Source: a candidate division FCPU426 bacterium (GTDB taxonomy: Bacteria; Oederibacteriota; Muellerivitia; Muellerivitales; Muellerivitaceae). Taken from it: a DNA stretch of 64,000 bases. Made by a program: the position numbers and the translations under genes. Under the pieces are notes generated by a model that was not told the origin of the DNA, did not search any database, and saw only the letters and a program-made list of their open reading frames with translations. Location: NCBI GenBank assembly GCA_963796105.1, contig CAWCKJ010000003.1, positions 112,567 to 176,566 on the forward strand, given 5' to 3'. This document shows positions 4,194-59,909 of this stretch, piece after piece (within the stretch, counting starts at the first letter, position 1; each line of letters begins with the position of its first letter).

Positions 4194-4232
4194 GCTGAGG
4201 TTCCTGCTGTTATTTTAAACGTGAGGGAAAAA

Positions 4233-4853
4233 ATGGTTTCTTTCCCGTTTGTCCGATGCACCACCGGCTGGTTCGTCGAGCTTTACTTCCGGCCGGAGAC
4301 TCCCGGGGTCGAAAACATCCCGAAAACCGGACCCTGCATCATCGCCTCCAACCACGCCAGCAACCTCGACCCCTATATGCTTGGGTACACGATCAAGGAA
4401 AGGGAGCTGTATTTCATAGCCAAAGAGGAGCTTTTTCATAACCCGATCTTCGGCTGGATCATCCGGATGAACAACGCCTTCCCGGTGAAGAGGGGCCAAA
4501 GGGACCTGGAGGCCATCCGGAAATTCCATGATTTCATCCAAACCGGGAAACCCCTGGCAATTTTCATGGAGGGGACCCGCACCCATGACGGCAACCTCCA
4601 GCCCCCCAAGAAAGGCGCGGGAAGGCTGATTTACGACGCCAAGGCCCCCGTCATTCCCACCTATATCGAGGGGACCTACCAGTCCATGCCCCGGGGCGGT
4701 ATTTTCCCAAAAAGGGCGCGAATTAAAGTCCACTACGGTCCGCCGGTCCCCTTGGATGACCTTTTCGCGGCCCCATCCGAGAAGCCCACTTACATCCGGA
4801 TCGCGGAACGGGTGATGGAGCATATCGCGAAATTAAAACCCAAAACAGCCTGA
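4233..4853 (+). CDS. plsC: 1-acyl-sn-glycerol-3-phosphate acyltransferase
   Basis: Acyltransferase motifs NHASNLDP (HX4D), FPVKRG and FMEGTRT are present. Likely start is the ATG at 4233 with a GAGGGAAAAA RBS, inside the listed ORF 4221..4853. Confidence 0.8.
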   Translation: MVSFPFVRCTTGWFVELYFRPETPGVENIPKTGPCIIASNHASNLDPYMLGYTIKERELYFIAKEELFHNPIFGWIIRMNNAFPVKRGQRDLEAIRKFHDFIQTGKPLAIFMEGTRTHDGNLQPPKKGAGRLIYDAKAPVIPTYIEGTYQSMPRGGIFPKRARIKVHYGPPVPLDDLFAAPSEKPTYIRIAERVMEHIAKLKPKTA

Positions 4854-10000: not shown

Positions 10001-10066
10001 TTGAAAAAGAAACCCAAGAAGGCCGTGAAACACCATGCCGCGGCCCCGGCGGGGGATGCCCCATGA
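7058..10066 (+). CDS. very large periplasmic TPR-repeat protein (YbgF/CpoB-like repeats)
   Basis: The listed ORF 6896.. overlaps rpsA. The plausible start is the Met at 7058 (MKMNNRK..), followed by a hydrophobic signal/anchor FFCGLLLPILILSIPVILSAAG. About 950 aa of TPR-like repeats follow (YbgF-type W..A.Y..G.. pattern). Confidence 0.6.
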   Translation: MKMNNRKTNVEKKRAAIPRGIFFCGLLLPILILSIPVILSAAGIEAPKPLEEGRALLKARAYHLAMERFLLVEEKSESSLERAMALRFIGETEFREKDYAAAYQAYQQSLRLNPLFTGALALEFKSAVALVYLKNYPTAVSKFQELEKKAYEPNSLSDLYFWEAECHFQLEKYDLAGEKYGKILKDNPGYQYRDLVRYLQSWCFFQQEDYDKALEGFHQTLGSTGDKSLKKLALFQTGETQFRMGRYSDAEGTYQEFLKNYPDDFLTVAALYGLGWVFGKEEDHEQAAKSFEKVISEYPDHPLAPWAAVRAGTEQKALGLLDKARKDYNWGLDSSPDQSPADLLEYGLGWLDYADQKFSDAGKHFSAVEHFPQGSALKWDAAYLEAGCLYQDGKFDEARADYGKLRSQAPANLSADAAYWEGWCDYANGKFDLAFEQFRRLSKTAQGELQSRSLWASAETAYQLQKYDEASKLYEAAMESHPSATITQQCYSGVGWSLFQEEKFEEALAQFKKAAQKNPDSPLALEAQIRCGDCYYNLHDYEKARESYQKILDGKAGPPYSLDAGEQLGWCDYRQEKYQQAIYDWALLLKKNGTEDRQARLTYWTAWAYFREKRFQDAQEEFQKVEADFPKDPLAPEAHLRSADCLFNLKKFKEAKEAYKSFLAAYPDHSLLPDALYGLQWSADKLGEKGEVNAAAGEFLEKFPASRYAPDVQYRLADSLFHDQKFPQAVEAFRTLLKKYPDSTEAPRALFWLGEALVKNDQNAEAFPVFQELLKKYPEDPLALEGQFSLGSLYFESKNYAKALETYTRIFQNYPDHRLAPHSLFNSAVCENKIGHPDKALQDFKMLMTDYPLDPLAQEAGMNAGILLENLGKLDEALKAYELCMKSPDEKLAVEATYYHAGILKKQKKYADAVQEFNKITLDYRKESQWVLVSFAAMAECYEQLKEYDKAASTYRRILKYTKVKQYTTATLKRLKALEPFLKKKPKKAVKHHAAAPAGDAP

Positions 10067-11898
10067 ACCATTCCCGTTTTTTCCTCCTTGAGAGTCTCCT
10101 GACCCTCGGGCTTTTACTGGCAGTTCCGTCTTTTTTAACGGCGCAGAAAACGGACGCGGCCGCCGCCCCCGAGACGGAAACCATTCCCGCTGAACCGGCC
10201 TCCCTCTCACAGCCCGTGACGGCGCCGGCGGAGGGGATCCCGGGAAGCCAGGCCCCCGGCCCCGGACAAAAACCCTCCCAAGGGGAGGGGGAAAAAGCCC
10301 CTGCGCAAAGCCGCCCCACGGCGGTTCCCGAGTTCGCGCTGCCGGAGGTGGTGATTACGGGAGAGAACGAGCTGACCATCGGGGCGAACCGTTTGGACCG
10401 GAAAGAAAACGACGTGACACTGGGAACCAGGGACTTGACCGGGTTCGAGCGGACTTTCAACGACCTTCCCGGCTTGAACAAGACCTTGACCGCCCTTTCC
10501 ACCGAGGAGGCCGGCCCCTCCAAGAACACCGCGCTGGTCCTTCACTTGGGCGGAGGAATTCCTGACACTTACGGGGGATGGGGTCTTTTCGGCCAAGAAT
10601 TCAAGGGACTGCAGTACCTGCTTTCGGGCTATTACTCCAACTGGGGAGGCCAGTCCGCGGGAACGGGCCTCGACGGGGACCAGAAAGCCGGAGGGGAATT
10701 GGGATTCCAGATTTCCCCGAGGGGCTCTCCCGCGATCAAATTGACCGCGGGATACGACAGGGTGGACGCGGAACTGCCTTATCAGAATTCCATCCGGGAA
10801 CTGCATGAGGGCTGGAACTTCGGGGGAAGCCTGGATTGGAGGCTCACCAGCCTGTTCATGGGCCAGGTGAAAATTACCTACCGGGACATATCCTTGAACT
10901 GCTTAGAACCTCGTCCACTTCCCCTTCTTCAACTCCAAACCAACAGCACCGGGGAGCTGGAAGGCGCTTTTAAGATGACAGCCGACGATATCGGCCCTTT
11001 CCTGAGCCGGTTTGTCCTGGACGCGGGGGGCCGCCACGCTTCCTCCGATTTCCCGACCGCCTGGGAGACCAGCTATGACTGGGGCTGGGCTGGTTTCCAG
11101 GCCGATTTCAAGGCGGGAGAAACCCTGGATCTCGTCGCGAAACTTCAGGCCCAGGGAGGCGGTGGATTGGACCTGCCGTTGAACCTATATCCGGTGGCGG
11201 ACCTGAATTGGAGGGTCTTTGAGAGCAGCAAACTCGACCTCTACTGGAAAAGGGACCGCTACATCGACGGAATGAGCAATAATTTCCTGGGGACCGAGCA
11301 CATCAGCCTATGGGGAGGTTTCCCTTCTCCCACGGAAATAACCGACGAGTGGGGCGGACGCCTGACCCAAAAGCTCAACGAGAGGTTCATCCTTTCATTG
11401 GCAGCCTCCACAGCCCTGATCAACGGATACCATGAGTGGTCGGATCTCAAACCTGGAAACCCGGATTACATCCAAACCTATTCCACGCTTAATCAGGTCC
11501 GGATTCAAAGGGCGGGGCTCGATATCCAATGGAATTTCGCCAAGGATTACCAGGCCGCGGCTGCCTTTCAATGGACCGGATCCGAAAACACCGGGGGGGA
11601 CGGGAAGAACCTGACGAACCTGCCGGCCGGCAAGGGGGTCCTCTCCATTTACCGCGGAAACGAGAAATTGGAGGCGAGGATGGAATTGGAACTTGCGTCC
11701 AGCCGCAACGCCTATGACACGGGGAGCGCGATCCTGCCGGCCTACGCGGCATTGAACCTGGACGCGGCCTACCATTGGACCAAGACCTTCTCCCTCTGGT
11801 TGAAAGGCGACAATTTAACGGGAACGGACTATGAGCTTCAGCCTGGATATTCCGAGCCCCAGTACCATCTCCGCGGAGGGGTGGAAATCATCTTCTGA
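10063..11898 (+). CDS. outer-membrane beta-barrel protein, TonB-dependent-receptor-like
   Basis: Signal peptide MNHSRFFLLESLLTLGLLLAVPSFLTAQ. Disordered Pro/Ala-rich N-terminal region. A plug-like LPEVVITGE segment. Body of alternating beta-strand character with C-terminal ..GGVEIIF (terminal Phe). Its first codons overlap the upstream TPR gene by 4 nt. Confidence 0.5.
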   Translation: MNHSRFFLLESLLTLGLLLAVPSFLTAQKTDAAAAPETETIPAEPASLSQPVTAPAEGIPGSQAPGPGQKPSQGEGEKAPAQSRPTAVPEFALPEVVITGENELTIGANRLDRKENDVTLGTRDLTGFERTFNDLPGLNKTLTALSTEEAGPSKNTALVLHLGGGIPDTYGGWGLFGQEFKGLQYLLSGYYSNWGGQSAGTGLDGDQKAGGELGFQISPRGSPAIKLTAGYDRVDAELPYQNSIRELHEGWNFGGSLDWRLTSLFMGQVKITYRDISLNCLEPRPLPLLQLQTNSTGELEGAFKMTADDIGPFLSRFVLDAGGRHASSDFPTAWETSYDWGWAGFQADFKAGETLDLVAKLQAQGGGGLDLPLNLYPVADLNWRVFESSKLDLYWKRDRYIDGMSNNFLGTEHISLWGGFPSPTEITDEWGGRLTQKLNERFILSLAASTALINGYHEWSDLKPGNPDYIQTYSTLNQVRIQRAGLDIQWNFAKDYQAAAAFQWTGSENTGGDGKNLTNLPAGKGVLSIYRGNEKLEARMELELASSRNAYDTGSAILPAYAALNLDAAYHWTKTFSLWLKGDNLTGTDYELQPGYSEPQYHLRGGVEIIF

Positions 11899-12560: not shown

Positions 12561-13175
12561 ATGGCGCAAGATTTTTCTCTTTTCGAGGTGATCTCAAAGG
12601 GCGGGTGGACCATCGGCTTTTTGTTCCTCATGTCGATCGTGGTGTTCGCCGTTCTTTTCGAGAGGCTGAGCTTTTACCGCAAAAACCTGAGGGGGCGCGA
12701 GGAGGTCCTGGCGGGCCTGGAATCCTTCCTCAACAAGGGCAACCTTCACGAGAGCCTCGAAGCCTGCGACCGGGACGGGACATTCCTGGCCAAGGTGGTC
12801 CAGGCGGGATTGAGGGCGAAACTGGAGAAGACAGGGCCCTCGGAATGCATGGAACGGGAGGCCAAGATACAGCTTTTAAGGCTGGAAAAACGCCTGCCCC
12901 TCCTGGCGACCATCGGAAGCACCGCCCCCTTCGTGGGATTGTTCGGGACCGTCCTGGGAATCATCAGGGCCTTCCGCGATTTGGCCGCCGCCAACAGCGG
13001 GGGAGCCGCGGTGGTGTCCCAAGGGATCGCCGAGGCCCTGGTGGCCACGGCCTCCGGACTCTTCGTGGCCATCACCGCCGTGTTCATCTATAACTGGTTC
13101 CAAAGCAAGATCAACGCCATGGCGCTGGAGGCGGAAATCGTGGTCTCGGAAATAGCCGAAAGGCTGGGGGCCTGA
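12561..13175 (+). CDS. MotA/TolQ/ExbB proton-channel family protein
   Basis: Three-TM topology with the conserved C-terminal block LATIGSTAPFVGLFGTVLGII..F typical of ExbB/TolQ. Confidence 0.8.
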   Translation: MAQDFSLFEVISKGGWTIGFLFLMSIVVFAVLFERLSFYRKNLRGREEVLAGLESFLNKGNLHESLEACDRDGTFLAKVVQAGLRAKLEKTGPSECMEREAKIQLLRLEKRLPLLATIGSTAPFVGLFGTVLGIIRAFRDLAAANSGGAAVVSQGIAEALVATASGLFVAITAVFIYNWFQSKINAMALEAEIVVSEIAERLGA

Positions 13176-13178: not shown

Positions 13179-13655
13179 ATGGAATCCCGCCTCAGGCCCA
13201 AGGCCAAGCTGATGTCCGAGATCAACATGGTGCCTTTCACCGACGTGGTTCTGGTTTTGCTGGTGATCTTCATGGTCACCACCCCTTTCCTGTTCCAAGG
13301 CGCCTTCCAGGTGAAGCTTCCCAAAGTGGCGGCGCCTTCCCCGAATCTGCCTGAAACCTTCACCATCACGATCGCCCAGGGGGACAAGGTTTACGTCAAC
13401 GACAAGGAAACCAGCATGGACGACCTCCAGGGCAAGTTGAAGGATTTGATCGCCCGGAAACCCGGATCCCTGGTCATGATTAACGCCGACAAAAACGTGT
13501 CCCACGGGACGGTCATGGGCGTCATGTCGGAGGCTTACCAGGCTGGAATCACAAAGGTGGGGGTGGCTGTCGAGATCGCGAATAACCCGGGGGCGCCCGT
13601 TACCGCGGGTATTCCACCAGCCAATAGGGCCCAAGCCCCCGTATCCGTGAAGTAA
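13179..13655 (+). CDS. ExbD/TolR biopolymer transport protein
   Basis: N-terminal INMVPFTDVVLVLLVIFMVTTPF single TM helix followed by a periplasmic domain. Directly downstream of the exbB-like gene. Confidence 0.8.
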   Translation: MESRLRPKAKLMSEINMVPFTDVVLVLLVIFMVTTPFLFQGAFQVKLPKVAAPSPNLPETFTITIAQGDKVYVNDKETSMDDLQGKLKDLIARKPGSLVMINADKNVSHGTVMGVMSEAYQAGITKVGVAVEIANNPGAPVTAGIPPANRAQAPVSVK

Positions 13656-13704: not shown

Positions 13705-14481
13705 ATGGACCGTGAGTTTCAAAAATCCATTTTTTACTCGGCCCTGTTCCACGCGCTTCTCTTCCTGATTTTTTTCCTGTTGTACCGTTCCTTCATCCTG
13801 GTGCGCACGCCCCTGCTGATGGACCTGACCCTGATCGGGGAAATGTCGCAAGGCCAGGGCATGGGATCGCCGGCGCCCCACGCGGGAGCGGAACCAGGCC
13901 AAATGCCGCCGGCCCAAACCGCCGGTGAATTCTCGACCCCCCGGAAGGAAGCGGCGAAACCCCCGGTCCCGAATCACGAAAAACCCGAAGCCGCGGTTAA
14001 AAAGCCCTCGAAACCCAAGCTTCATTCCGGGAACGCCAGCTCCGAATCCTACCTTGAAAGTTTGGAAAAGAAAGCCCCCATCGGGTTCAACATCAAAAAA
14101 GACGTCACTGGCGATATCAAGACCACCGCCGGTTTGGGCCAGGCAGGCGTGGCGGGGACTCCCGAAGGGAACCCCCAAATCGAGGGGGAACTGGCGGCCA
14201 GGAGCATCAAGCGCAGGGTGAATCCGGCCTACCCGGATTGGGCCAAAAAGCAGGGGATTGAGGCCACTGTGCGGTTCCATTTGACGGTGATGCCCAACGG
14301 TTTGTTGAAGGATGAACTGGATCTCGAGCAGACCTCGGGTTACCGCGAACTCGACCGAGTGGTGTACGAGGCCCTGATCCAATGGGAATTCGAGCCCCTG
14401 CCGCCGGAATTGCCCCAGGTGGACCAGTCCGGAATCATCACCTTCACATTCAGCCTCAATAACGCCTCCTCCTTCCCATGA
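13705..14481 (+). CDS. TonB/TolA-like energy transducer
   Basis: N-terminal TM anchor, a long Pro/Lys/Glu-rich spacer, and a C-terminal TonB-type domain (..RRVNPAYPDWAKKQGIEATVRFHLTVMPNG..). Confidence 0.7.
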   Translation: MDREFQKSIFYSALFHALLFLIFFLLYRSFILVRTPLLMDLTLIGEMSQGQGMGSPAPHAGAEPGQMPPAQTAGEFSTPRKEAAKPPVPNHEKPEAAVKKPSKPKLHSGNASSESYLESLEKKAPIGFNIKKDVTGDIKTTAGLGQAGVAGTPEGNPQIEGELAARSIKRRVNPAYPDWAKKQGIEATVRFHLTVMPNGLLKDELDLEQTSGYRELDRVVYEALIQWEFEPLPPELPQVDQSGIITFTFSLNNASSFP

Positions 14482-16583
14482 TTTATTTTTTGCTCGCGGG
14501 CGGGGCCCTTTTTTGGACCGGGTTGGCCCTGACCGCCTCGGCCCCGGGCATCGTTGGCGGGGACGCCCCGGAGTTGACCAGCGCGGCCTTCCATTTGGGC
14601 TCGGCCCACGCGCCAGGCTACCCCCTCTACGTGGCCCTGGTGAGGATCTTCCTTCAGATGCCTCTCGGGACCCCCGCTTTTCGATCCACCTTTTTTTCCA
14701 TCTTGGTCCAGGGCGCAGCTTTCGTCATTCTAGCCCATGCCCTCAAGAACCTGCCAGGAAGCCGGCTGAGGGAAGGAGAAAGATGGGGCCTGGCGTTCCT
14801 GATATCCTGCCTGGTCATGTCAGGCCCACTGGTTTTCCACCAGTTCCTAAGTCCCGAGGTGTTCGCTCTCCACTTTTTTTTCATCGCCCTATTCCTGCTC
14901 CTGGTTTTCAAAAAGGATTCACTCGGTTTTCTGGCCACCGCTTTTGTTTCGGGCGCGGCCCTCACCCACCAGCATTTGGCCCTGCTGGTTCTCCCGGCCT
15001 TATTGTGGAATTACCGCTCCTTCCTTGGAAGACCCAAGACCCTTCTTTACGGGATTTCGTTATTCCTGTTGGGACTATCGGTTTACCTTCTTCTCCCCCT
15101 GCGGGCTGTCCAGCATCCATTGGCAAATTGGGGGCATCCGGATAATTTCCGACAATTTCTCTACCATCTGGGAAGGACCCAATACGGCGGAGACATTACC
15201 GGCGGAAAATTCATGAACGGCCTCCAGCTTCTTTGGCTCTATCTCAAGGATTATTTCCGTGAAATATTGGGATTGGGACTGCCCCTGGTTCTACTAGGTC
15301 TCTGGATAGGTTACCGTAGATTTAGTGTTGCCTATTGGATCGGGTTCTCAACCCAATTCCTGTTGCTTCCTTTCCTGATCCGGGCCCCGAATGATCCTGA
15401 GAATAATTTCGTCAACGGGGCTTTCCTCACCCCCGCCATTCTTTGGTTTTCCCCGCTCCTGTTCCTGGGATTGGAATGGGCCTATGAAAAGGCGGGGAAG
15501 TTCCGTTTTTGGGCGACAGCCCTTGTGGCCTTGCAGGTCCTCATCGGCGCCGGCATCACCTTCGGCGAGAAGGATTCCTCCAGGAATCTCGCGGTGGAGG
15601 ACGTCGGGAGGGATATTTTCAGGCAGATGCCGAGACGGTCTGTTCTCTACAGCGAGGGCGACGCCGTGACCTTTTCCCTGGCTTATTTAAACCTGGTCTT
15701 GGGCCTCAGGCCCGACCTGGATCTTTTCGACCGGACGGGGGGGCTTTTCAAGGATCTGTACCAGCTTCTGGATTACCGGGGGAGTCCAAGCGTCACTTTG
15801 GATTACCTGGTCGGCAAGGAAAGGGCTTACGAGTCGATTCGGCAACCCGTGGACATCTATTACAGCGAATCCACCTATTCACCAGGCAGGGCCCTGACGA
15901 TGACCGGTTTGCTTTTCAAGGTCACGGAGGGGAATATGGGTTTGGGCCCGATGGACCTTTGGAACGGCTTCCGGCCTCCCCGGATAGAAAGGCGCCATGA
16001 TTATTTCTCGAGGGAAACAGGGGCAAGGTACTTTCTTTTCAAAGCATCCTGGGACCTGGACCAGGCCAAGAACCAGGCTTATTATCAGGCGGACATGGAC
16101 CGGCTCGGGGAACTGACCTTCGATAATTACAGGCTTCTCGTGAACGAGGGATTAGTCGAGAGCGGCCACGGTAGGACGGACCAGGCGGTGCTGGACTATG
16201 AGAAGGCCATCGAGATCACGCCGGATGCCTCCCTGGCCTGGGTTGACCTGGGCATTGTCGCACACAAACAGGGGCGCGTCGCGGATGCGGTGAGGTACTA
16301 CCGAAAAGCCGTGGCCCTGGAGCCCTATAACGCTGTCTACCACATCCACTTGGGTTACGAGTATTACCAAAACGGACAAGCCCAGGAGGCCATCGGGGAA
16401 TGGGAAACAACCAGGAGGATTGATCCCTCGAACCCCGAGGCCTATCACAACCTGGGCCTCATTTACATGAAGACCAATCCGGAATACGCCGCCCAGATGA
16501 TCCGGCAATTCCTGGGTATATATCCGGGTGCGGGGGACCGACCTGCACTTGAGAAATGGCTCGCGGCTCAGCCCGCCCAGTAG
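14478..16583 (+). CDS. DUF2723-like polytopic membrane protein (putative GT-C glycosyltransferase) with C-terminal TPR repeats
   Basis: N-terminal motif GGDAPELTSAAFHLGSAHAPGYPLY matches the DUF2723 signature. About 10 TM helices, then TPR repeats. Overlaps the tonB-like gene by 4 nt. Confidence 0.6.
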   Translation: MIYFLLAGGALFWTGLALTASAPGIVGGDAPELTSAAFHLGSAHAPGYPLYVALVRIFLQMPLGTPAFRSTFFSILVQGAAFVILAHALKNLPGSRLREGERWGLAFLISCLVMSGPLVFHQFLSPEVFALHFFFIALFLLLVFKKDSLGFLATAFVSGAALTHQHLALLVLPALLWNYRSFLGRPKTLLYGISLFLLGLSVYLLLPLRAVQHPLANWGHPDNFRQFLYHLGRTQYGGDITGGKFMNGLQLLWLYLKDYFREILGLGLPLVLLGLWIGYRRFSVAYWIGFSTQFLLLPFLIRAPNDPENNFVNGAFLTPAILWFSPLLFLGLEWAYEKAGKFRFWATALVALQVLIGAGITFGEKDSSRNLAVEDVGRDIFRQMPRRSVLYSEGDAVTFSLAYLNLVLGLRPDLDLFDRTGGLFKDLYQLLDYRGSPSVTLDYLVGKERAYESIRQPVDIYYSESTYSPGRALTMTGLLFKVTEGNMGLGPMDLWNGFRPPRIERRHDYFSRETGARYFLFKASWDLDQAKNQAYYQADMDRLGELTFDNYRLLVNEGLVESGHGRTDQAVLDYEKAIEITPDASLAWVDLGIVAHKQGRVADAVRYYRKAVALEPYNAVYHIHLGYEYYQNGQAQEAIGEWETTRRIDPSNPEAYHNLGLIYMKTNPEYAAQMIRQFLGIYPGAGDRPALEKWLAAQPAQ

Positions 16584-16729
16584 CTCATCGACCCCGGCGG
16601 ATGCCGCGCTTAACCCCAGCGATTCCACCTGAATCCGCTTTTCATAAGGCGCCATTGATTTCCGGCAATGGCCGCTTTAATCCTTGTTCTGTGTTAAAAT
16701 AACCGCCTTCATCACAATTAAGGAACGAC

Positions 16730-17668
16730 ATGGCCCGGATCGCAGCGGTTTTCCCCAATGAAGGATCTCAATACGTGGGCATGGGCAAGGATTTTTACGC
16801 GAAATCCCTGACCGTGCGCAAATACTACGACGACACGGAGAAACTCCTGAGCTCGAAGATTGCGAAGGTTTGCTTCCTGGGGCCCAAGGAGGAACAGGAC
16901 AAGATCCTGAACGCCCACCTGGCCACCTTCGTGAATGAAGTGGCTTTTTTTGAGCCTATCGTGCAAAACCGCAGGAAACCCGAGCTTTTAACCGGTGTGG
17001 GCGTGGGGGAAGTGGCGGGCCTGGTTCTGGGGGAATGCCTGCCCTTCATTAATGCCCTTCAGTTTGTGGTCAAGAGGATCCCGCTTTTGGAGGTTTTCGC
17101 TGCGAAACACGGCGGCGGCTCCATTTCCATCATGGGAATCACCCTGGAACAGCTCCAACCTCTTTTGGCCCGGGAGGAGGGGGAAATCACCATCACGCAT
17201 TATCTCGCCCCGGATACTTTCATCGTATGGGGGCCCAAGGATGCCGTAGGCTCCCTCCAGGCTGAATTGCAGGGGGTAAAGGGTCTCAAGACCAATCCAC
17301 AGCCTTCCAGGGGTCCGCTCTTTACCCCTCTTGCCTCTGAGCTTGAAGCCGGCTTGGGGAAACTGCTGGAGGAGTGCCTGGGTGACGTGAAGCTGAAGAA
17401 TCCCAAAATCGCCTTCGTGTCCTGCGGGGACGGGGAAAGGATCGGAACCCCGGAAAACGTAAGGGATGTCCTGGTCAAGCAATATTCAAGGCCGGTCCAA
17501 TGGGTCCAAACGGTAAAAGCCGTCATTTTCCAAGGGTTTCGGAGCTGGGTGGAGGTGGGCCCGGGCCGGACCTATGTCTCCATGGTGAAGAAAATCGACG
17601 TGGATACCCGCATCACCAACGTGGAGGATATGAAGAGCCTATCCCTCATGGTGAAGTTGACGGGATAA
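16730..17668 (+). CDS. FabD-like (malonyl-CoA:ACP transacylase fold) protein with degenerate active site
   Basis: Collinear with E. coli FabD (AAVFPNEGSQYVGMG ~ AFVFPGQGSQTVGM; ..VQWVQTV..VEVGPG ~ ..VQWTKSV..YEVGPG). The GHSLGE nucleophile motif reads GVGVGE, so Ser92 and His91 are lost. The His201 position reads Thr. Gln11 reads Glu. Confidence 0.65.
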   Translation: MARIAAVFPNEGSQYVGMGKDFYAKSLTVRKYYDDTEKLLSSKIAKVCFLGPKEEQDKILNAHLATFVNEVAFFEPIVQNRRKPELLTGVGVGEVAGLVLGECLPFINALQFVVKRIPLLEVFAAKHGGGSISIMGITLEQLQPLLAREEGEITITHYLAPDTFIVWGPKDAVGSLQAELQGVKGLKTNPQPSRGPLFTPLASELEAGLGKLLEECLGDVKLKNPKIAFVSCGDGERIGTPENVRDVLVKQYSRPVQWVQTVKAVIFQGFRSWVEVGPGRTYVSMVKKIDVDTRITNVEDMKSLSLMVKLTG

Positions 17669-17673: not shown

Positions 17674-18150
17674 ATGAAATTATTAGCGGGACTCATCCTA
17701 CTCTTCTCCTCCGCCCTCGCGGTTTACGGGAAAGACAACACTGACCTGGCCGCCCAGAACCAAATGGGAAACCAGATCAACCTTCCCTCGATGATTACCA
17801 GCCCGACGGAAACGCCCACTCCGGTGGTTCATAGGACTCCCGTGGTCACGAAACCCGGAATCAGCGTCATTCCTAACCCCGCCCGAGGAAAAAAATTGTC
17901 TTTCCGGATCATGGCCCCTTCCCTGAGCAAGGCCTATATCCGCGTTTACGACCGCAATTTCGACCCCGTGACTGTTTTGGTGCAGGAAGGGGAGCAGCTT
18001 TTCGACGTGATGTGGAACCTCCAAAAGGTGCCGGAAGGCCCCTACTATTACCAGGCCCAGCTGGATGAGAAGCGCGGCGGCAAGGTCACCAAATTCCAGA
18101 TGCAAAAATTCGCCGTGATCAAAGACGAGGATCCGGAGGAAAAACCATGA
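17674..18150 (+). CDS. small secreted protein with FlgD-Ig / T9SS-type C-terminal beta-sandwich domain
   Basis: Start taken at the internal Met (MKLLAGLILLFSSALAVYG signal peptide); the listed ORF 17500.. overlaps the fabD-like gene. C-terminal PNP..IRVYDRNFDPVTVL..W..VPEGPYYYQAQL..K..KFAVIK pattern. Confidence 0.55.
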   Translation: MKLLAGLILLFSSALAVYGKDNTDLAAQNQMGNQINLPSMITSPTETPTPVVHRTPVVTKPGISVIPNPARGKKLSFRIMAPSLSKAYIRVYDRNFDPVTVLVQEGEQLFDVMWNLQKVPEGPYYYQAQLDEKRGGKVTKFQMQKFAVIKDEDPEEKP

Positions 18151-19577
18151 CCCTTCCCGAGGTCCTGATCGTTGGACGGCCCAATGTTGGAAAATCCACC
18201 CTTTTCAACCGTTTGATCGGCAGAAACATCGCCCTGGTGGACGGACAGCCCGGGTCCACCCGCGACCTGAAGAGCATGGAGGCTGAGTGGAACGGTACGT
18301 CCTTCCTTTTGACCGATTCCGGAGGTTGGGTCCCGGGAGAGAAGGAATCCATCGCGGCGAAAGTGGGGGCCATGCTGGAGATTAAAATCCGCCAGGCCAC
18401 GGCCCTCTTGCTGGTGGTGGACGGCTCGGAGGGATTGACCCAGCCGGATGAAATCATCGTGCGGCACCTGAGAGAACTCAACCTTCCGACATGGCTGCTG
18501 GTCAATAAGGCCGACCAATTCGAGAAGTGGGACGAGACCCTTTCGGATTTCAGGCGTTTGGGATTCGAGAATTGTTTCCCCCTTTCCGCTTCCCATGGTA
18601 TTGGACTCGACGATTTCCTTGACAGCCTGGTGGATTTCCTGAAACGGGAAAATTTACCTGAAAAGGACGAAAAGGAAGAGAAAAAGCCCCTCAAACTCGC
18701 CTTCCTAGGGAAACCCAATGTCGGCAAATCCTCCCTGGTGAACGCACTCTTGGGTGAGAATAAACTGCTCGTGGACGACCTGCCAGGAACGACCCATGAC
18801 GCGATTCCCCTCATCCTGGAAGTCGGGAACGACCCCCTGGTCCTAGTGGATACCGCGGGAATCAGGGCCACCCAAAGGCAGGACAGCCGCATCGAGGAAC
18901 TCAGCGTCCAACAGACGCTTTATGAGCTTCAAACCTGCCAGGTGGCGCTGTTTCTCCTGGATGGGGAAAAGGGGATCACCCACCAGGACGTCTCCATCGC
19001 CCGGATCCTCCAGCAGGCTTTCCGCCCCGTGGTCATCCTGATCAACAAATGGGACATCCACCCCAAGGGAGCGGAACAGGCCAGGGCCGAGAGAATCACC
19101 CACAGGGAGCTGAGGACGATCCAATTCGCCCCCATCCTTTTCATCTCGGCGAAAAACGGACAAGGATTGGACAGGATCCTGCCCTTGGCCTCCGCCGTAT
19201 ATGAGGAAAGCCTCAAGAAAGTACCCACGGCCCAGGTCAACAACGCCTTCCAGGACGCGGTGGCCAAGCAACAGCCGCCCTTCAAGAAGGGAAACCAGGT
19301 GAGGTTCTTTTACGGGTACCAGCGCCAGGGACATCCCCCAGCTTTCGAGGTTTTCGTGAGCCATCCGGAGAGTATCACTCCCTCCTACCTCCGCTATCTG
19401 GAGGTGGAACTGCGCAAGTCGGTGGGAATGGAATCGACTCCCTTGCAGATCGTTTTGAAGGCGAAAAGCGACAAGCACGGTTTCAAGAAACCTTCCTACA
19501 AAAGGAATTTCGACCCGAATGTCTCCCGCAGGAAAAAAAGGCTCGCGGGAGAAAGGAAAAAAAAGGAAAAACGATGA
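18147..19577 (+). CDS. der: ribosome-biogenesis GTPase Der (EngA)
   Basis: Two tandem GTPase domains with P-loops GRPNVGKST and GKPNVGKSS, a KH-like C-terminal domain, and a Lys/Arg-rich tail. Confidence 0.9.
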   Translation: MTLPEVLIVGRPNVGKSTLFNRLIGRNIALVDGQPGSTRDLKSMEAEWNGTSFLLTDSGGWVPGEKESIAAKVGAMLEIKIRQATALLLVVDGSEGLTQPDEIIVRHLRELNLPTWLLVNKADQFEKWDETLSDFRRLGFENCFPLSASHGIGLDDFLDSLVDFLKRENLPEKDEKEEKKPLKLAFLGKPNVGKSSLVNALLGENKLLVDDLPGTTHDAIPLILEVGNDPLVLVDTAGIRATQRQDSRIEELSVQQTLYELQTCQVALFLLDGEKGITHQDVSIARILQQAFRPVVILINKWDIHPKGAEQARAERITHRELRTIQFAPILFISAKNGQGLDRILPLASAVYEESLKKVPTAQVNNAFQDAVAKQQPPFKKGNQVRFFYGYQRQGHPPAFEVFVSHPESITPSYLRYLEVELRKSVGMESTPLQIVLKAKSDKHGFKKPSYKRNFDPNVSRRKKRLAGERKKKEKR

Positions 19578-20182
19578 GTTTACTTCTTTCCTTATTTGGC
19601 TCCTATTTGTTGGGTTCCATTCCGTTCGGTTTCTTGGCGGTGAAACTCGCCAAGGGCATCGACGTCCGGACCCAGGGGAGCGGGAACATCGGAATGACCA
19701 ACGTATGGAGAGTGGCTGGCGCGCCTTGGGGAATCTTGACCCTGCTCCTGGACGCCTCCAAGGGAGTACTGGCAGTCTGGCTGGGGCGTCATTTCATCCC
19801 CCAAAGCGAAATGGGTGGCGTCCTTTGCGGCCTATTAGCGTTGGTTGGAAATGTTTTCAGCCTATTCATGAAATTTAAAGGCGGTAAAGGGGTCGGGGTG
19901 AGCGTCGGTGTTTTTTTCAGCCTACTGCCCCTGGAAAGCGCCTTCGGCACGGCTGTATTCCTGTTGGCGCTTTTAATCTGGAGGATGATTTCAGCCGGAA
20001 GCCTCCTGGGGTTCACCGCAATGACCCTTTTGACTTTTTATTTTCAAAGGGGTTTGACTTGGTTGTCCGGATTGGCTTTGACCGGAGCTTTGGTTGTTTG
20101 GTGGTCCCACCGCCAAAATATACGCCGCCTTTTAAACGGTACCGAGAGTAAAATAAGCGGAAAACATAAGGGGAGAACTTGA
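19574..20182 (+). CDS. plsY: glycerol-3-phosphate acyltransferase PlsY
   Basis: N-terminal LLGSIPFGFLAVKL..GSGNIGMTNVWR motif. Multi-TM. Sits in the conserved der-plsY-gpsA arrangement. Confidence 0.85.
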   Translation: MSLLLSLFGSYLLGSIPFGFLAVKLAKGIDVRTQGSGNIGMTNVWRVAGAPWGILTLLLDASKGVLAVWLGRHFIPQSEMGGVLCGLLALVGNVFSLFMKFKGGKGVGVSVGVFFSLLPLESAFGTAVFLLALLIWRMISAGSLLGFTAMTLLTFYFQRGLTWLSGLALTGALVVWWSHRQNIRRLLNGTESKISGKHKGRT

Positions 20183-20186: not shown

Positions 20187-21182
20187 ATGAGAATAGGCAT
20201 ATTAGGAAGCGGAAGCTGGGGAACGGCATTGGCTTCGCTCCTGCAAAAATCCGGTCATGAGGTGAACCTCTGGGCCTTCGATCCCCGGGAGTTCCAAACC
20301 CTCATTGATACAAGGGAAAATCCGCTCCTCCCTGGCGTGCTTTTGAGCCCGCGAATCAACATTACTCATCATCTCATGGATGCTTTAAAGGGCCGGGAGG
20401 GAATTGTCGTAGCAGTGCCTTCCCACGCCGTCCGGGCGACGGCTGTTCAGGCGGCCTTGAATTGGCCTCATTCGGGTTGGGCGGTTTGCGTGAGCAAAGG
20501 CCTCGAAATGGATTCCAGGTTGACGTTAAGCCAGGTTCTTCGCCAGTCCCTTCCGCCTGGAACGCCCATCGGAGTTTTATCCGGACCAAGCCACGCTGAG
20601 GAGGTTTCCGTTGAAATGCCGACGACCGTCGTGACAGCCTCACCTGACCCCCGGCTTGCCGAGAAGATACAACAAGCCTTCCACACGGATTATTTCCGGG
20701 TCTATACCTCCCAGGATATCCTCGGCGTGGAATTGGGCGGTTCCCTCAAGAACGTCATCGCGATCGCGGCCGGAGTCCTGGATGGGATGGGATTGGGAGA
20801 CAACACCAAGGCGGCCCTGATGACTAGGGGCCTTTATGAAATTACCAAGGTCGGGGTCGCGCTGGGCGCCAAGGCCCAGACTTTCGCGGGCCTCGCCGGT
20901 ATGGGGGATTTAATTGTCACCTGCATCAGTCGGCACAGCCGTAACCGATTCTTGGGAGAGAAAATCGGGAAGGGAATTCCCCCAACCCAGGCCATGCGGG
21001 AGATGACGATGGTCGCGGAGGGCGTCAATACCTCCAAGGCCGCCTTGGAAATCGCGCGGGAATTGGAAGTGGAAGTCCCCATTACTCGGGAGGTATACCA
21101 GGTCCTTTTCGAGGATAAACCGGTCCGCGAGGCCATCTCCAGCCTCCTGACGAGGTCGGCCAAGCCGGAGAGCCTGATTTAA
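20187..21182 (+). CDS. gpsA: NAD(P)H-dependent glycerol-3-phosphate dehydrogenase
   Basis: N-terminal Rossmann motif IGILGSGSWGTALA and the C-terminal GpsA-type domain. Confidence 0.85.
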   Translation: MRIGILGSGSWGTALASLLQKSGHEVNLWAFDPREFQTLIDTRENPLLPGVLLSPRINITHHLMDALKGREGIVVAVPSHAVRATAVQAALNWPHSGWAVCVSKGLEMDSRLTLSQVLRQSLPPGTPIGVLSGPSHAEEVSVEMPTTVVTASPDPRLAEKIQQAFHTDYFRVYTSQDILGVELGGSLKNVIAIAAGVLDGMGLGDNTKAALMTRGLYEITKVGVALGAKAQTFAGLAGMGDLIVTCISRHSRNRFLGEKIGKGIPPTQAMREMTMVAEGVNTSKAALEIARELEVEVPITREVYQVLFEDKPVREAISSLLTRSAKPESLI

Positions 21183-21190: not shown

Positions 21191-21481
21191 ATGAAACGCA
21201 AAGATATCCTGAAGCAGCTGACCCGCTTGGGTTTGACCAAACACCAAGCCCAAAAGGCCGTCGATGGTTTTTTCCGGTCCATCACGGACGCCTTGCGGGA
21301 GGGGAAAAAAGTTTCTATAGTGGGTTTAGGCAGCTGGGAATGGAAAAGACGGCCGGCCCGGCCGGCCCGAAATCCCAGGACTGGAAAGGTAGTCCAGCTC
21401 AAGGAACGTAAAACGCTTGTTTTCAAGCCCAGTCAATTGATCAAGAATAAGTTGAACGCCCGTCCAGAACCGCGAAAATAA
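21191..21481 (+). CDS. HU/IHF-family DNA-binding protein
   Basis: 96 aa. ..[40 protein letters not shown].. matches the HU/IHF fold, including the RNP(R/K)TG arm motif. Confidence 0.8.
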
Positions 21482-21497: not shown

Positions 21498-21989
21498 TTG
21501 GACGAAAAGCTTTTTTATACCATCGGGGAAGTTTCCAAATACGTTGACGTCAAGCCCTATGTCCTCCGCTATTGGGAAACGGAATTCCGGAAGCTGAACC
21601 CCCAAAAATCGGTCACGGGCCAGAGGACCTATCGAAAAAAAGACATCCAGATGGCCCTGACTATCCGGCGGCTGCTTTACGAGGAAAAATACACCATTGC
21701 GGGAGCTATTCAAAAACTCGAGGAGCTTGAAAATGAGGGTTTGGATTCCTTTATCCCCCCCGTGGATGAAACGCGCCAAGTTGAAGAGGCTGGCTCCGAG
21801 GCGGCCGGGGTTTCAGTGGAAGAAAAAACCATTCCGGGGGAAGCCGAAAAAGCGGGAATAACACTTGAAGAAGCCAAAGGCGAAGCGGTAAAACCGCGTG
21901 GGTCCGCCCGGCCTCCGGAAAAAATAAGGGAACTATTCACGCTGATCGCCGAGACGAAAAGCATCCTGGAAAAATATCCGGCGCTCTGA
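21498..21989 (+). CDS. MerR-family transcriptional regulator
   Basis: N-terminal [27 protein letters not shown] is the MerR signature. The C-terminal part is acidic and low-complexity. Confidence 0.75.
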
Positions 21990-27454: not shown

Positions 27455-28885
27455 ATGGTGAAACGTCAAGATACGCCTCAGAAATCAAACCCGCAAGTCC
27501 AGAAAAAAGCCAATCGAAACGGGAGAATCGCGCCCAAGATTACGGCCAATACTCCCGTAGGTATTTGCGAAGACCGCCTAACAGCTTTTGGCGGATTGTT
27601 GGCATTGGCGAAGATGTTCGACCTTCTTGATTTTGAGCGGGAATTCAAAAAACACTATGCCGCACCTAAACGCCTTCCGAATTTGGGCCACTACCGGATG
27701 GTAAGCGGCATCCTAATGCTTCTTTTCATCGGGTTCCAAAGACTTGGCCATTTTGCCTACCTGCGGGGTGAGGTCATGCTGTGCGGTTTACTGCGGGTTC
27801 CCTTGTTGCCGGTAGTGACAACTTTTTGGAGATACCTGAGGTCGCTGGGGATCGGGCAGTCGGCATCGTTGCTGAATCTGAGTGGGGCGTTACGGGCCAA
27901 GGTTTGGGGACAGGTGAAATATGCCCCCAAGAAGGTGGAGATCAACATCGATACCACCACCGCAACGGTCTACGGAAATATCGAGGGAAGCCGAAAAGGA
28001 TACAACCCCAAGCACCGGGGCAAGAAGGGACTGAGGCCCATTCTGTGTTTTCTCCAGGAAACCCGGGAATATTTGTGCGGAACCCAAAGACGCGGAACCA
28101 CCCTTAGTTCTGAGGAAGTGGCCCGCCAAATTAGACAATTCCGGCGACTCTTGCCGTCCTGTGTCCGGACGATTCTGGTGCGCGGTGACGGTGAAATGAT
28201 CGGCTGGGAAAGCGTGAAAGCCTGTGAAAAAGAAGGGTTTTCTTTCATCTTCGGGAACAAGCGGCATGACCCGCCTTTCACGAAAAAGGGTTGGTACCGC
28301 CATGGAGAACACGAATACAACGAATGTGTCCATCAACCCATAGGCTGGCAACAACCAGTCCGGTTTGTGGCGATGAGGACGCTGGATGAAAAAGCGCGGG
28401 AGAAACAATTGAGCCTTCCTGAAATGGAAGGATATGTCTACCGAATCTTCGCGACCAACTGTCTGGGAGCACCCCATCGGGTGGTTGAGGAATACGACCT
28501 GCGCGCGGATGTGGAAAACCTGATTGGTGAGGCGCAACGGGAGGGGTTATTAGCAATTCCCTCTAAGAGTTTCCAAAGCCACCATGCTTTTTTCCAGATC
28601 GTGATGCTGGCTTACAACCTCTGGAGGTGGATGAAACTAATGGTGGGCCATTGTGGAAAAGAAAAGCGACCGGGAAAGAAGCCACAGGAGAAGGAACAGA
28701 TCACCATGCCGGACCATACCCTTCGGATCGCACGTTTGAAGATGCTCTTTGTAGCCGCCCGAATCCAGTATCACGGCCATCGGGATGTGGTGAGGTATTC
28801 AATCCATGATGATAGGACAGCGGGCCTATTGGGTTTCCTCAAATACCTTGATCGAAAACGATTGGAAAGACCCAGGGCGGCCTAG
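27455..28885 (+). CDS. IS1380-family DDE transposase
   Basis: 476 aa. Blocks ..FGGLLALAKMFDLLDF.., ..KGYNPKHRGKKGLRPILCFL.. and ..ENLIGEAQREGLL..SFQSHHAFFQIVMLAYNLWRWMK are collinear with ISEcp1/IS1380-type transposases as I recall them. Confidence 0.75.
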   Translation: MVKRQDTPQKSNPQVQKKANRNGRIAPKITANTPVGICEDRLTAFGGLLALAKMFDLLDFEREFKKHYAAPKRLPNLGHYRMVSGILMLLFIGFQRLGHFAYLRGEVMLCGLLRVPLLPVVTTFWRYLRSLGIGQSASLLNLSGALRAKVWGQVKYAPKKVEINIDTTTATVYGNIEGSRKGYNPKHRGKKGLRPILCFLQETREYLCGTQRRGTTLSSEEVARQIRQFRRLLPSCVRTILVRGDGEMIGWESVKACEKEGFSFIFGNKRHDPPFTKKGWYRHGEHEYNECVHQPIGWQQPVRFVAMRTLDEKAREKQLSLPEMEGYVYRIFATNCLGAPHRVVEEYDLRADVENLIGEAQREGLLAIPSKSFQSHHAFFQIVMLAYNLWRWMKLMVGHCGKEKRPGKKPQEKEQITMPDHTLRIARLKMLFVAARIQYHGHRDVVRYSIHDDRTAGLLGFLKYLDRKRLERPRAA

Positions 28886-33189: not shown

Positions 33190-34131
33190 ATGATTATTTA
33201 TCTGGGAAGCCAAAAAATGTCGAAACCCCTCTCGGGATTCGGCGGTTATATTCAACTCTTGACCCGCGCTGTTGGTTTGGCCTTAAGGCATTCTGCCGGC
33301 CGGCCCCGGGCCTATAAGAGGCTGATCGCGAGCTCGCTCGCGTTCAAATCGGTGCTCGCCCTAGTGCCAGTTCTCGCCATCCTCATGGCGGTTCTCGCGG
33401 GAGAGGCCTTCACCGAAAAACGAGAGGCTATCCTCGACCGGATCGTGGATGTGATTTATCCCGTCGATAACCTCGATAACGACAAGACCTTGGACCCGTC
33501 GGAAAAGCAAAACCTAAGGGAAATGAACCAGGTGGGGAAGAGGCAGATTCGACGCTCTATCAAGAAATTTGCTGAACATTCGAAAAAGGTCGGCTGGACC
33601 GGTTTGTTGGCTTTCGCGGTGGTGGTGTTTCTTTTGCTGCGAGACGTTGAAACGTCCTTTAATTTTCTTTGGGGGGTGAGCCGTGGAAGACCTCTTCCTT
33701 CTCAGTTCGTAAGGCATACCCTATTGTTTCTGGTTGGTCCGTTGATGCTGATCTCCGTCATGACAATGAAAGATTGGTTCCATGGCTGGGGGATCGTCAA
33801 GCCCTTCTGGAATGGGTGGTTCCTTTCTGTCGGAGTGCCATTCGTCTTTCTCTGGGCAGGATGCGCGGCCATGTACGCCTGGATTCCCAACGCCAAGGTC
33901 GGCCGAAAAGCGGCATTGTCCGCGGGGTTCCTAGCGGCTTTTCTCCTGGAGGTCGGACGGCGGGGGATGAACTATTACACGGTTCATGTGATGGATCATT
34001 CGAAGGCCTACGGGGCCCTTTGGACTTTTCCGGTCATTCTCCTATGGCTTTATGTTTCCTGGACACTGATTCTCTTCGGCGCCGAGGTGTCGTTTTACCT
34101 CCAAAATCCACCCTCGCCTGGGAATCATTAA
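33190..34131 (+). CDS. YihY/BrkB-family inner-membrane protein
   Basis: About 6 TM helices with family-typical spacing (..AFKSVLALVPVLAILMAV.., ..LLFLVGPLMLISV..). Confidence 0.55.
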   Translation: MIIYLGSQKMSKPLSGFGGYIQLLTRAVGLALRHSAGRPRAYKRLIASSLAFKSVLALVPVLAILMAVLAGEAFTEKREAILDRIVDVIYPVDNLDNDKTLDPSEKQNLREMNQVGKRQIRRSIKKFAEHSKKVGWTGLLAFAVVVFLLLRDVETSFNFLWGVSRGRPLPSQFVRHTLLFLVGPLMLISVMTMKDWFHGWGIVKPFWNGWFLSVGVPFVFLWAGCAAMYAWIPNAKVGRKAALSAGFLAAFLLEVGRRGMNYYTVHVMDHSKAYGALWTFPVILLWLYVSWTLILFGAEVSFYLQNPPSPGNH

Positions 34132-34163
34132 ATTGCAGGGTATCTATATTTCGGGGTAACCAT

Positions 34164-40664: not shown

Positions 40665-40679
40665 TAGAAAGAGGAAAAA

Positions 40680-44899: not shown

Positions 44900-45757
44900 G
44901 TGAATATGAAAGTTAAGCATCTGAAGAGTGTTAAGAAAACAATTTTAAAGAAGGAATCCAAATCGGCTTGGGAAAGGGTTCAATTGGCCCGGAATTCCCA
45001 ACGCCCCTTTACGGGAGACTATATTCCGCGTATTTTCACGGATTTTACCGCCATCCATGGGGATCGGGCCTTTGGGGATGATCTTGCTATCATCGGCGGT
45101 TTCGCTTACCTGGAAAGCCAACCGGTGGTGGTTTTGGGCCACCAAAAAGGCCATGACACAAAAGAAAATCTCCGCCGGAATTTCGGGATGCCTCATCCTG
45201 AAGGATACCGAAAGGCCCTCCGAATCATGAAATTGGGTGAGAAGTTCAAAAAGCCCATCATTTCATTCATTGATACGGCTGGGGCATACCCTGGCATTGG
45301 TGCTGAGGAACGTGGACAAGCCGAAGCTATCGCCCGTAATCTATTTGAAATGGCCAAACTCAAGGTTCCCGTGATCTCGGTCGTTCTGGGAGAAGGGGGA
45401 AGCGGGGGAGCCATCGGAATCGGGGTGGCTAACCGGGTTCTCATGATGGAAAACGCCTGGTATTCGGTCATCTCCCCGGAAGGTTGCGCGGCCATCCTTT
45501 GGGATGATCGGGAGAAAATTCAGCAAGCCGCCGAAGTGTTGAGGCTGACCGGAATGGATCTTCTTGATTTGAAAGTAATCGATGAGATCATTCCTGAACC
45601 CCATGGAGGAGCGCAGAACAATTTTGACGAAGCGGCGTACCAATTGAAAAAATCCCTTCTGAAGCACTTGTCAGTTCTCACGAAAATGTCACCGACGGAA
45701 CTAGAGGCTCAAAGGTACCAGAAATTCCGGGCAATCGGTGTTTTCAAGGAAAAATAG
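44900..45757 (+). CDS. accA: acetyl-CoA carboxylase carboxyltransferase subunit alpha
   Basis: Long collinear match to E. coli AccA (..[53 protein letters not shown]..) and ..[12 protein letters not shown]. Confidence 0.9.
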
Positions 45758-57659: not shown

Positions 57660-58058
57660 ATGAAAAAATTGATCATAGGCATCTTGATATTAATCGGCTT
57701 CTTTTTTATGGCCCTTAATACATCCATGCTCGCTGACCAGGCGTTGAAATGGGTGCAGGAAAATCCCAAGGATCCGCATGCTCCTAAAGTCCTATATGAA
57801 GCTGCCCGTTGGTGCGACATCATGGGCGACAATAAAAAAGCTTTGGAGGTTTATTGGGATCTTTACCAACAATATCCCGGCAGTTCCTCCCTCTGCGCCG
57901 CGTCTCTCTATTACAGCGCTCAAATCCAGGTGGATACGAGTGTTTCGAAAAAACTCGCGGATCCTTTTTTGAAGATTATATTAGACCAGTATTTTAGCGA
58001 GACTGAGTGGGTGGAAAAAGCCAGAAAGTTACAGGACGAGGTGAATTATGTTCGCTGA
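57660..58058 (+). CDS. small secreted protein with a single TPR-like repeat
   Basis: Signal peptide MKKLIIGILILIGFFFMALN. Helical TPR-like core. Confidence 0.4.
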   Translation: MKKLIIGILILIGFFFMALNTSMLADQALKWVQENPKDPHAPKVLYEAARWCDIMGDNKKALEVYWDLYQQYPGSSSLCAASLYYSAQIQVDTSVSKKLADPFLKIILDQYFSETEWVEKARKLQDEVNYVR

Positions 58059-59022: not shown

Positions 59023-59045
59023 ATCGGAGCCGGATTAAGGTTTAA

Positions 59046-59903: not shown

Positions 59904-59909
59904 GGGAAA

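Follow-up and report, generated by a model that had tools for sequence, protein, structure and literature searches.

What a protein of the FabD family can do once its catalytic residues have been replaced is the question raised by an open reading frame (ORF) at 16730-17668 of the DNA studied here, a stretch of 64,000 nucleotides (64 kb) of contig CAWCKJ010000003.1 from a candidate division FCPU426 bacterium, referred to below as the window. FabD, the malonyl-CoA:acyl carrier protein (ACP) transacylase, is among the most uniform enzymes of bacterial lipid synthesis. The window gene and its close relatives are best regarded as a pseudoenzyme branch of this family that is maintained by selection, has not been described before and has been mis-annotated as an enzyme, given that IMG and NCBI name the proteins of the clade '[acyl-carrier-protein] S-malonyltransferase'. 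In the literature that we searched, no report on FabD pseudoenzymes or on a conserved dead FabD paralogue was found, the matches to 'FabD-like' concerning hepatitis E virus, and the FCPU426 literature that we found gave no lipid metabolism.

The derivation of the protein from FabD is clear. An earlier note, made from the sequence alone, had proposed that the ORF is collinear with FabD along its length, and this holds for both family models and for the solved structures. With PF00698 (Acyl_transf_1) the protein reaches 37.3 bits, above the gathering score of 32.7, which places it in the superfamily, whereas on the fabD equivalog model TIGR00128 its residues 3-290 align with model positions 2-287 at 136.5 bits, below the curated cutoff of 260.9. 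Three other members of the clade obtain 110-133 bits on this model and six canonical controls 333-375 bits. A phmmer search of the PDB sequences returned about 60 solved FabD or acyltransferase (AT) chains, collinear over the full length, the best of them bacterial FabDs (E = 9e-27). The AlphaFold2 model, built from 112 sequences, has a mean pLDDT of 96.6 and a pTM of 0.93, and the best 50 Foldseek matches in the PDB are all FabD or polyketide synthase (PKS) AT domains, with TM-scores of 0.85-0.90 for the FabDs, among them that of the AcpP complex 6u0j. According to this model, the window gene is predicted to encode a FabD-derived protein in which the two-subdomain fold has been kept.

Set beside FabD itself (TIGR00128; 1MLA, 2G2Z, 6U0J), the protein has in common its length, its collinearity, the alpha/beta plus ferredoxin-like fold, Arg117, Gln250, the glycines of the nucleophile elbow, the EVGPG loop and most of the basic docking residues. 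It differs in being only about 30% identical, in scoring half of the family cutoff, in being more basic and in lying outside any fab operon. The epsilon subunit of malonate decarboxylase, MdcH (TIGR03131), which also has a FabD-type fold, was considered as another identity, being the second-best NCBIfam match, and it was rejected, as the score of 95.1 bits is far under the cutoff of 297.9 and the window lacks mdc genes. Unlike the window protein, MdcH has retained the Ser/His dyad.

It is in the catalytic centre that the protein departs from FabD. Residues of FabD are given here in Escherichia coli numbering, and the canonical reference is the 50 nearest FabDs listed. The canonical elbow G(H/L)SLGE is replaced by GVGVGE, with His91, Ser92 and Leu93 of the E. 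coli enzyme changed to Val, Gly and Val, the first two of which changes had already been recognized in the earlier note. The column of the nucleophile Ser92 contains Gly in 70/70 members of the clade, and Ser in 50/50 of the nearest canonical FabDs as well as in 80/80 metagenomic FabDs. The second catalytic residue, His201, is missing as the note had stated, but its replacement is Phe198, within an RGPLF motif, and not the Thr named there, which follows this Phe and aligns with Cys202 of the E. coli protein. In this column the 70 clade members have Phe (63), His (5) or Tyr (1), and the canonical FabDs have His in 50/50; when the counts are restricted to 62 clade members, Arg occupies the position of Ser197 in 62/62, and that of His201 is Phe in 57/62 and His in 4/62. 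All 130 canonical FabDs that we inspected keep both the Ser and the His.

Several other changes had escaped the earlier note. The Gly10-Gln11 pair of the GQGSQ loop is Asn-Glu in 66/66 members of the clade (G and Q are found in 49-50/50 canonical FabDs), the pantetheine/CoA contacts Asn160, Asn162 and Gln166 have become His or Gln, Leu and Thr, respectively, and Met121 and Ser197 are also replaced. Of the 74 columns that are at least 96% conserved in the 50 canonical FabDs, 35 are kept in the clade and 39 replaced. Gly, Pro and core residues make up most of those kept, which also include Arg117, Glu95, Gln250 and Trp257; among them Arg117 and Gln250 are retained throughout the clade and the canonical set. 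Those replaced include Q11, Q63 (partly), S92, L93, M121, M132, N160, N162, Q166, S197, H201 and N231, which we take to cover every residue used for catalysis or for holding malonate and pantetheine. On the other hand, the residues N10, E11, R82, G91, R194, R271, W273 and Y282 are 95-100% conserved in the clade and absent from canonical FabDs. With Ser changed to Gly, His to Phe and the malonate- and pantetheine-binding residues replaced, the sequence argues that the protein should be unable to run the Ser-His ping-pong mechanism or to form a malonyl-enzyme intermediate, and that it should not be the malonyl-CoA:ACP transacylase of the cell. The claim that the protein cannot be an acyltransferase is, to this extent, borne out by the residues lost.

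The proteins with this altered centre form a compact and isolated group. A search of 5.8 billion proteins returned 70 close relatives (46-100% identity, E <= 5e-70), and then, within the 120 matches listed, dropped abruptly to ordinary FabDs at 31% identity and E of about 1e-38. In a HMMER profile search of 1.84 billion representatives at 50% identity, the clade appeared as one full-length representative at 539 bits and two fragments; no intermediate between the clade and ordinary FabDs was found among these representatives, the next single-domain proteins scoring at most 198 bits. A scan of the GTDB species representatives located the clade in eight genomes (L001-L008), three of them titled candidate division FCPU426, one Candidatus Firestonebacteria, three proteobacterium and one 'uncultured bacterium'. 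The gene order downstream of the FabD-like gene is common to seven of these loci, all but the Firestonebacteria one. The three genomes titled 'proteobacterium' (L001, L002 and L004) have in this region the gene order of the FCPU426 metagenome-assembled genomes, and their titles are probably a taxonomic mislabel.

Within the clade the gene has not been left to decay. All the 13 clade genes with available DNA are intact and have 312-313 codons. In the two closest pairs the dN/dS ratio (Nei-Gojobori) is 0.03; it rises to 0.08-0.17 in pairs further apart, in which dS is near saturation. Between the window and L001 the FabD-like proteins are 68% identical, close to the values of Der (67%), PlsY (63%) and GpsA (65%). 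At 17 loci from independent assemblies, 13 in the FCPU426/Firestonebacteria clade and 4 in two rarer Ser-to-Gly families described below, the Gly of the elbow is encoded by GGC, GGT, GGG or GGA, i.e., the amino acid is held while its codon drifts. These figures indicate that the gene is maintained by purifying selection, and homology with loss of catalysis and selection would come together in it, as expected of a pseudoenzyme.

The loss of the nucleophile is not restricted to this clade. Among 65 single-domain representatives from the profile search, four more had Gly at the nucleophile position (P0153, P0170, P0244 and P0175). P0153 and P0170 keep Gln11 and His201 and have the elbow FG(A/V)G(A/P)GLY, whereas Gln11, His201 and Gln250 are all missing from P0244, P0389 and P0390, which have Arg82 and an RG-LF motif in common with the clade. 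P0175 is an ordinary FabD, with Q11, H91, H201 and Q250 present and 287 bits on TIGR00128 (above the cutoff), except for the Gly in place of the catalytic Ser, and it is treated as an independent, very recent loss or a sequencing error. In a neighbour-joining tree of 95 sequences with 100 bootstraps the clade and the P0244 and P0153 families grouped together in 100/100 replicates, and the clade grouped with the P0244 family in 81. A real caveat is that all three families are long branches, which attraction could bring together. Synteny supports the grouping independently, since the P0244 locus has the order T2SSF, T2SSF, FabD-like, ROK, der, plsY, HU and MerR, the P0389 locus starts in the same way (T2SSF, T2SSF, FabD-like, ROK) before its contig ends, and P0153 is followed, 2.4 kb downstream, by a ROK gene. 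The Der and PlsY proteins of the P0244 genome are only 31% and 39% identical to those of the window, and the FabD-like proteins 29%; therefore, a great distance separates this lineage from that of the window, over which the divergence of the FabD-like protein has been similar to that of Der. Most simply, the nucleophile would have been lost early, and some branches would later have lost His201 and Gln11 too. When metagenomes were scanned with an alignment of the P0244 and P0153 families, each of the 80 loci obtained was canonical, having both Ser and His, and no further Ser-to-Gly member appeared.

The surface with which FabD meets ACP has fared differently from the pocket. In the cross-linked E. 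coli AcpP-FabD complex the interface comprises three regions, the first formed by K279, the second by K286 and R287, the latter also stacking on the CoA adenine, and the third by K189 and R190 with I136 and L192, where R190 binds the CoA 3'-phosphate (bioRxiv 10.1101/2020.05.15.098798). Four of these five basic residues are kept in the clade as Lys or Arg (K279 in 56/62, K286 in 62/62, R287 in 62/62 and R190 in 59/62), and the two related Ser-to-Gly families likewise have basic residues at the positions of K286, R287 and R190. The glycines of the GxGxGE elbow and the EVGPG loop are retained as well. The clade has a mean pI of 7.7 and a net charge of +1.2, versus 5.65 and -4.7 in canonical FabDs, a shift of about six positive charges. 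The pattern, as read from the sequences, looks like that of a protein whose catalytic pocket has been dismantled but in which most of the surface for docking an acidic partner or a nucleotide is preserved.

The gene stands in a long and tightly packed array (Table 1). The neighbours reported in the earlier note (a small secreted protein, der, plsY and gpsA) were all recovered, at the coordinates given in Table 1, and the absence of adjacent fab genes that had been described holds within the window. The gene of the secreted protein starts 5 nt past the stop codon of the FabD-like gene (17668) and overlaps the start of der by 4 nt (18147/18150). This secreted protein gave no significant match to any Pfam or NCBIfam family, and a homologue of it follows the FabD-like gene in most of the clade genomes. 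Its homologues (L001-L007, L081, L087) range from 145 to 654 aa, with a C-terminal domain of about 110 aa conserved, and in several genomes the gene is translationally coupled on both sides. Gaps of 4-16 nt join gpsA and the genes of the HU-like and MerR-family proteins to the string.

Table 1. Coordinates and basis of the features of the FabD-like gene and its surroundings in the window, followed by the loci of the rarer Ser-to-Gly relatives
Feature	Position	Strand	Basis
PlsC-like 1-acylglycerol-3-phosphate acyltransferase, start of the array	4221..4853	+	PF01553; TIGR00530 101.8 bits; same position in L081 and L086
ExbB/TolQ-like	12561-13175	+	PF01618, PF02472 (with the next row)
ExbD/TolR-like	13179-13655	+	PF01618, PF02472 (with the previous row)
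TonB/TolA-like	13705-14481	+	PF03544, TIGR01352
TMEM260-like GT-C glycosyltransferase, C-terminal tetratricopeptide repeats (TPRs)	14478..16583	+	PF11028 + TPR
Shine-Dalgarno-like AAGGAA, 4 nt before the ATG of the FabD-like gene	16720..16725	+	read from sequence
FabD-like pseudoenzyme coding sequence (312 aa)	16730..17668	+	ORF list, PF00698 + TIGR00128 matches, AlphaFold2, Foldseek
Asn10-Glu11 replacing Gly10-Gln11 of the GQGSQ loop (oxyanion hole, malonyl contact)	16757..16762	+	translation FPNEGSQ
Degenerate nucleophile elbow GVGVGE; Gly91 at the position of E. coli Ser92	16994..17011	+	translation, clade column counts, GGN codons
Arg116 = FabD Arg117 (malonyl carboxylate binding), retained	17075..17077	+	invariant in clade and canonical sets
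RGPLF motif: Arg194 for invariant Ser197, Phe198 for catalytic His201	17309..17323	+	translation, column counts
Small secreted protein, 158 aa (signal peptide, Pro/Thr linker, beta-rich C-terminal domain)	17674..18150	+	ORF list, synteny
der (EngA), double-GTPase ribosome-assembly factor	18147..19577	+	59-68% identity to loci genes with PF01926 x2 + KH_dom-like
plsY (acyl-phosphate:glycerol-3-phosphate acyltransferase), 4-nt overlap with der	19574..20182	+	orthologues carry PF02660
gpsA (NAD(P)H glycerol-3-phosphate dehydrogenase)	20187..21182	+	orthologues carry PF01210, PF07479
HU-like DNA-binding protein	21191-21481	+	synteny; in conserved string
MerR-family regulator, end of conserved string	21498-21989	+	synteny
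accA (acetyl-CoA carboxylase carboxyltransferase alpha)	44900..45757	+	PF03255, E = 8e-129
P0153	L040:10001-10933 (complete chromosome OZ218778.1)		
P0170	L171:3351-4280		
P0244	L090:2737-3666		
P0389	L089:10001-10933		

Upstream, the ExbB-, ExbD- and TonB-like genes always precede the FabD-like gene in the clade, and the TMEM260-like gene between the TonB-like and the FabD-like genes is variable, being present in L003, L005 and L083 and absent from L006, L007, L008, L081 and L086. Further upstream of the ExbB-like gene are those of a 611-aa protein and of a 1056-aa TPR protein, rpsA and the PlsC-like gene. The 611-aa protein (10063-11898, + strand) is flanked in all the clade genomes by the 1056-aa TPR protein and ExbB, and has no Pfam or NCBIfam match; it probably belongs to an uncharacterised Tol/TonB-like envelope module. 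The gap of 146 nt upstream of the FabD-like gene contains a weak hairpin at 16636-16651, and no sigma-70-like site was found in it; terminator-like matches numbered 29, barely above those of shuffled sequences (19.4 +/- 4.1). The whole array has the same order in all the clade genomes that were examined, including the member of 46% identity, with the exception of one Firestonebacteria contig.

The protein has kept the fold, the carboxylate-binding Arg and most of the docking patch, has gained positive charge and is under strong constraint, and it therefore acts most likely by binding. We tentatively favour a non-catalytic adaptor or sensor of ACP or CoA thioesters tied to PlsX/PlsY phospholipid synthesis. 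Such a protein would bind holo-, malonyl- or acyl-ACP, or a CoA thioester, non-covalently, working as an adaptor, a sensor or a sequestering factor, and the basic patch, kept along with Arg117, would serve as in FabD for the docking of ACP, through its acidic helix II, and of the CoA nucleotide. Its gene would be co-transcribed with der, plsY and gpsA, and in the most speculative step of the proposal the state of the acyl-carrier pool would be coupled in this way to PlsX/PlsY-type synthesis. The order FabD-like, secreted protein, der and plsY, with its junctions of 5 and 4 nt, is conserved down to 46% identity. The earlier note had suggested an ACP- or acyl-binding regulator, and this putative role is partly supported by the retained docking residues and by the operon with plsY and gpsA.

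Several observations weigh against this tentative assignment. At the ACP interface, K189 and the hydrophobic groove (I136/L192) have been lost in the clade, and since FabD uses the basic residues that were kept for CoA as well, their retention does not point to ACP in particular. Moreover, the carboxylate site might be neutralised by Glu11 beside Arg116, and malonyl binding would then be less likely. As for the gene context, in the Firestonebacteria locus L008 the FabD-like gene is followed by CN-hydrolase and thioredoxin genes, with no der, and the contexts of P0153 (L040) and P0170 (L171) are unrelated and uninformative. The arrangement of rpsA, der-gpsA and hbs is old in Firmicutes too, and the gene order may be an inherited housekeeping array rather than functional coupling. 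The lipid-gene neighbourhood that the earlier note emphasized does contain plsY and gpsA, but these are part of a long housekeeping array that also includes the genes of rpsA, TPR, ExbB/ExbD/TonB-like, HU and MerR proteins; therefore, adjacency to lipid genes is weaker evidence than had been assumed. In fact, der is as close a neighbour of the FabD-like gene as plsY.

This proximity of der leads to the first alternative, i.e., that the protein is a cofactor of ribosome biogenesis in which the FabD fold would serve, together with Der, encoded two genes downstream, as an RNA- or ribosome-binding module. The precedent is human mitochondrial MCAT, the orthologue of FabD, which takes part in assembling the mitoribosomal small subunit as a factor that sequesters rRNA h31 (PDB 8CSP-8CSS; PMC9892005). 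This protein shows the FabD fold in a structural, non-enzymatic role within a large assembly, its chain 8csp_8 is among our sequence and fold matches, and the FabD-like gene stands in one operon with a ribosome-assembly GTPase. The change from an acidic to a near-neutral or basic protein (with the pI values given above) and the gain of the invariant Arg82, Arg194 and Arg271 point in the same direction, as do the presence of rpsA in the same conserved array and the link with der, which has persisted in the distant P0244 family in the absence of gpsA. Nevertheless, MCAT keeps the dyad and its enzymatic job, whereas the link of the FabD-like protein with the ribosome is one of gene context, and the ribosomal role of MCAT is a mitochondrial novelty; according to the authors, yeast is without an MCAT homologue (PMC9892005). 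In addition, MCAT acts on the mitochondrial small subunit and Der on the large one, a net charge of +1 would be modest if the protein bound RNA, and der, plsY and gpsA are packed together, der adjacency being no more specific than that of plsY. We consider this function rather unlikely.

A new enzymatic activity appears improbable to about the same degree. According to this explanation, the remodelled gorge, with Glu11, Arg116 and Arg194, would carry out a non-covalent reaction on a carboxylated or thioester substrate, e.g., the hydrolysis or decarboxylation of malonyl- or acyl-ACP or -CoA. The eight clade-specific residues listed above are too uniform for random decay, dN/dS is low, and Arg117 and Gln250 have been kept. 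However, neither the P0244 nor the P0153 family has Glu11 or Arg271, and in the latter Arg82 is replaced as well; therefore, there is no common new catalytic constellation across the Ser-to-Gly group. No precedent was found in the literature searched.

A broader formulation, which we regard as quite doubtful, would have an ancient nucleophile-less family of FabD fold, present in several candidate phyla and placed upstream of der, acting as a Der-linked or ribosome-biogenesis factor that reads the ACP or malonyl state, a bacterial counterpart of MCAT, or else as the sole FabD homologue of cells whose type II fatty acid synthesis (FASII) would be primed without a Ser-His transacylase. Were the Der-linked version true, fatty-acid supply would be tied to ribosome assembly.

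That the protein is the sole working malonyl-CoA:ACP transacylase, operating by a non-canonical mechanism as the only FabD homologue of the genome, is very unlikely. A tblastn search with five FabDs and the AcpP of E. coli detected no second FabD and no acpP, either in the window or in the loci of L001-L008 (about 20 kb around each), but these regions are a small fraction of each genome, so the absence of a second copy there is no evidence of its absence genome-wide. The window contains accA, along with birA and coaX, and therefore malonyl-CoA is made by the organism, in which a genuine malonyl transacylase should be required. For such a reaction, Arg117 and the docking residues for ACP/CoA would still be available. 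However, the nucleophile, the general base, the Gln of the oxyanion loop and the pantetheine-binding Asn and Gln residues are all gone, in a family whose 130/130 inspected canonical members keep Ser and His. The ping-pong mechanism, with a single gorge, is established for FabD, and we infer that this gorge could not hold the CoA and ACP arms at once, as direct transfer would need.

An error of sequencing or assembly that hides a nucleophile Ser, which the earlier note had allowed for, or a decaying pseudogene can be dismissed: GGC (Gly) is one base from AGC (Ser), but Gly occupies the position in 70/70 homologues from independent assemblies and is written with four GGN codons over 17 loci, and the frames are intact and of uniform length, dN/dS is 0.03 and the predicted structure is of high confidence.

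Two other known systems resemble the FabD-like protein or its setting in part. The chain-length factor (KS-beta) and the KSQ domains of type II and modular PKSs have the nucleophile replaced and are conserved, as a non-condensing partner or a decarboxylase. Like the FabD-like protein, they are paralogues of a fatty acid synthase or PKS component that has lost its nucleophile and persists, although they have a thiolase fold and are obligate heterodimer partners encoded in biosynthetic clusters, none of which is evident for the FabD-like protein. Regarding the gene context, YbgC of E. coli is a hot-dog thioesterase encoded in ybgC-tolQRA-tolB-pal-cpoB and reported to co-purify with ACP and phospholipid-synthesis enzymes. 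It is a cytoplasmic protein linked to lipid metabolism and ACP whose gene neighbours TolQ/TolR/TolA-like genes and that of a TPR protein, comparable to the TPR, ExbB, ExbD, TonB-like and FabD-like series, but its fold is unrelated, it is catalytically active and its gene lies on the opposite side of the tol genes, the likeness being one of context only.

Some further features of the window are recorded here. The GC content is about 0.55-0.60 in the first 22 kb and about 0.45-0.53 thereafter. A DDE transposase (PF13701/PF01609) is encoded at 27455-28885 (+). The ORFs at 33190-34131 (+), coding for a BrkB-family membrane protein, and at 33669-35063 (+) overlap by about 460 nt in different frames; the latter (464 aa, TTG start, no family match) may be spurious or have its true start further downstream. 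A GH57/DUF3536 protein adjoins the GlgB branching enzyme at 38211-42899 (+), a pair of the glycogen-type storage polysaccharide. A T2SSE protein (type II/IV secretion ATPase) fused to a long TPR region is encoded at 55246-57549 (+), and cheR and cheW genes are found among large TPR proteins at 58048-63920.

The immediate impact of these results is limited, the family being confined to rare uncultured lineages. Nonetheless, metabolic reconstructions of FCPU426 and Firestonebacteria may count a fabD that is not one. If docking has indeed been kept while catalysis was lost, the family would be a natural example of a FASII enzyme turned into a binding module, and a candidate regulator between the acyl-carrier pool and phospholipid synthesis or ribosome assembly.

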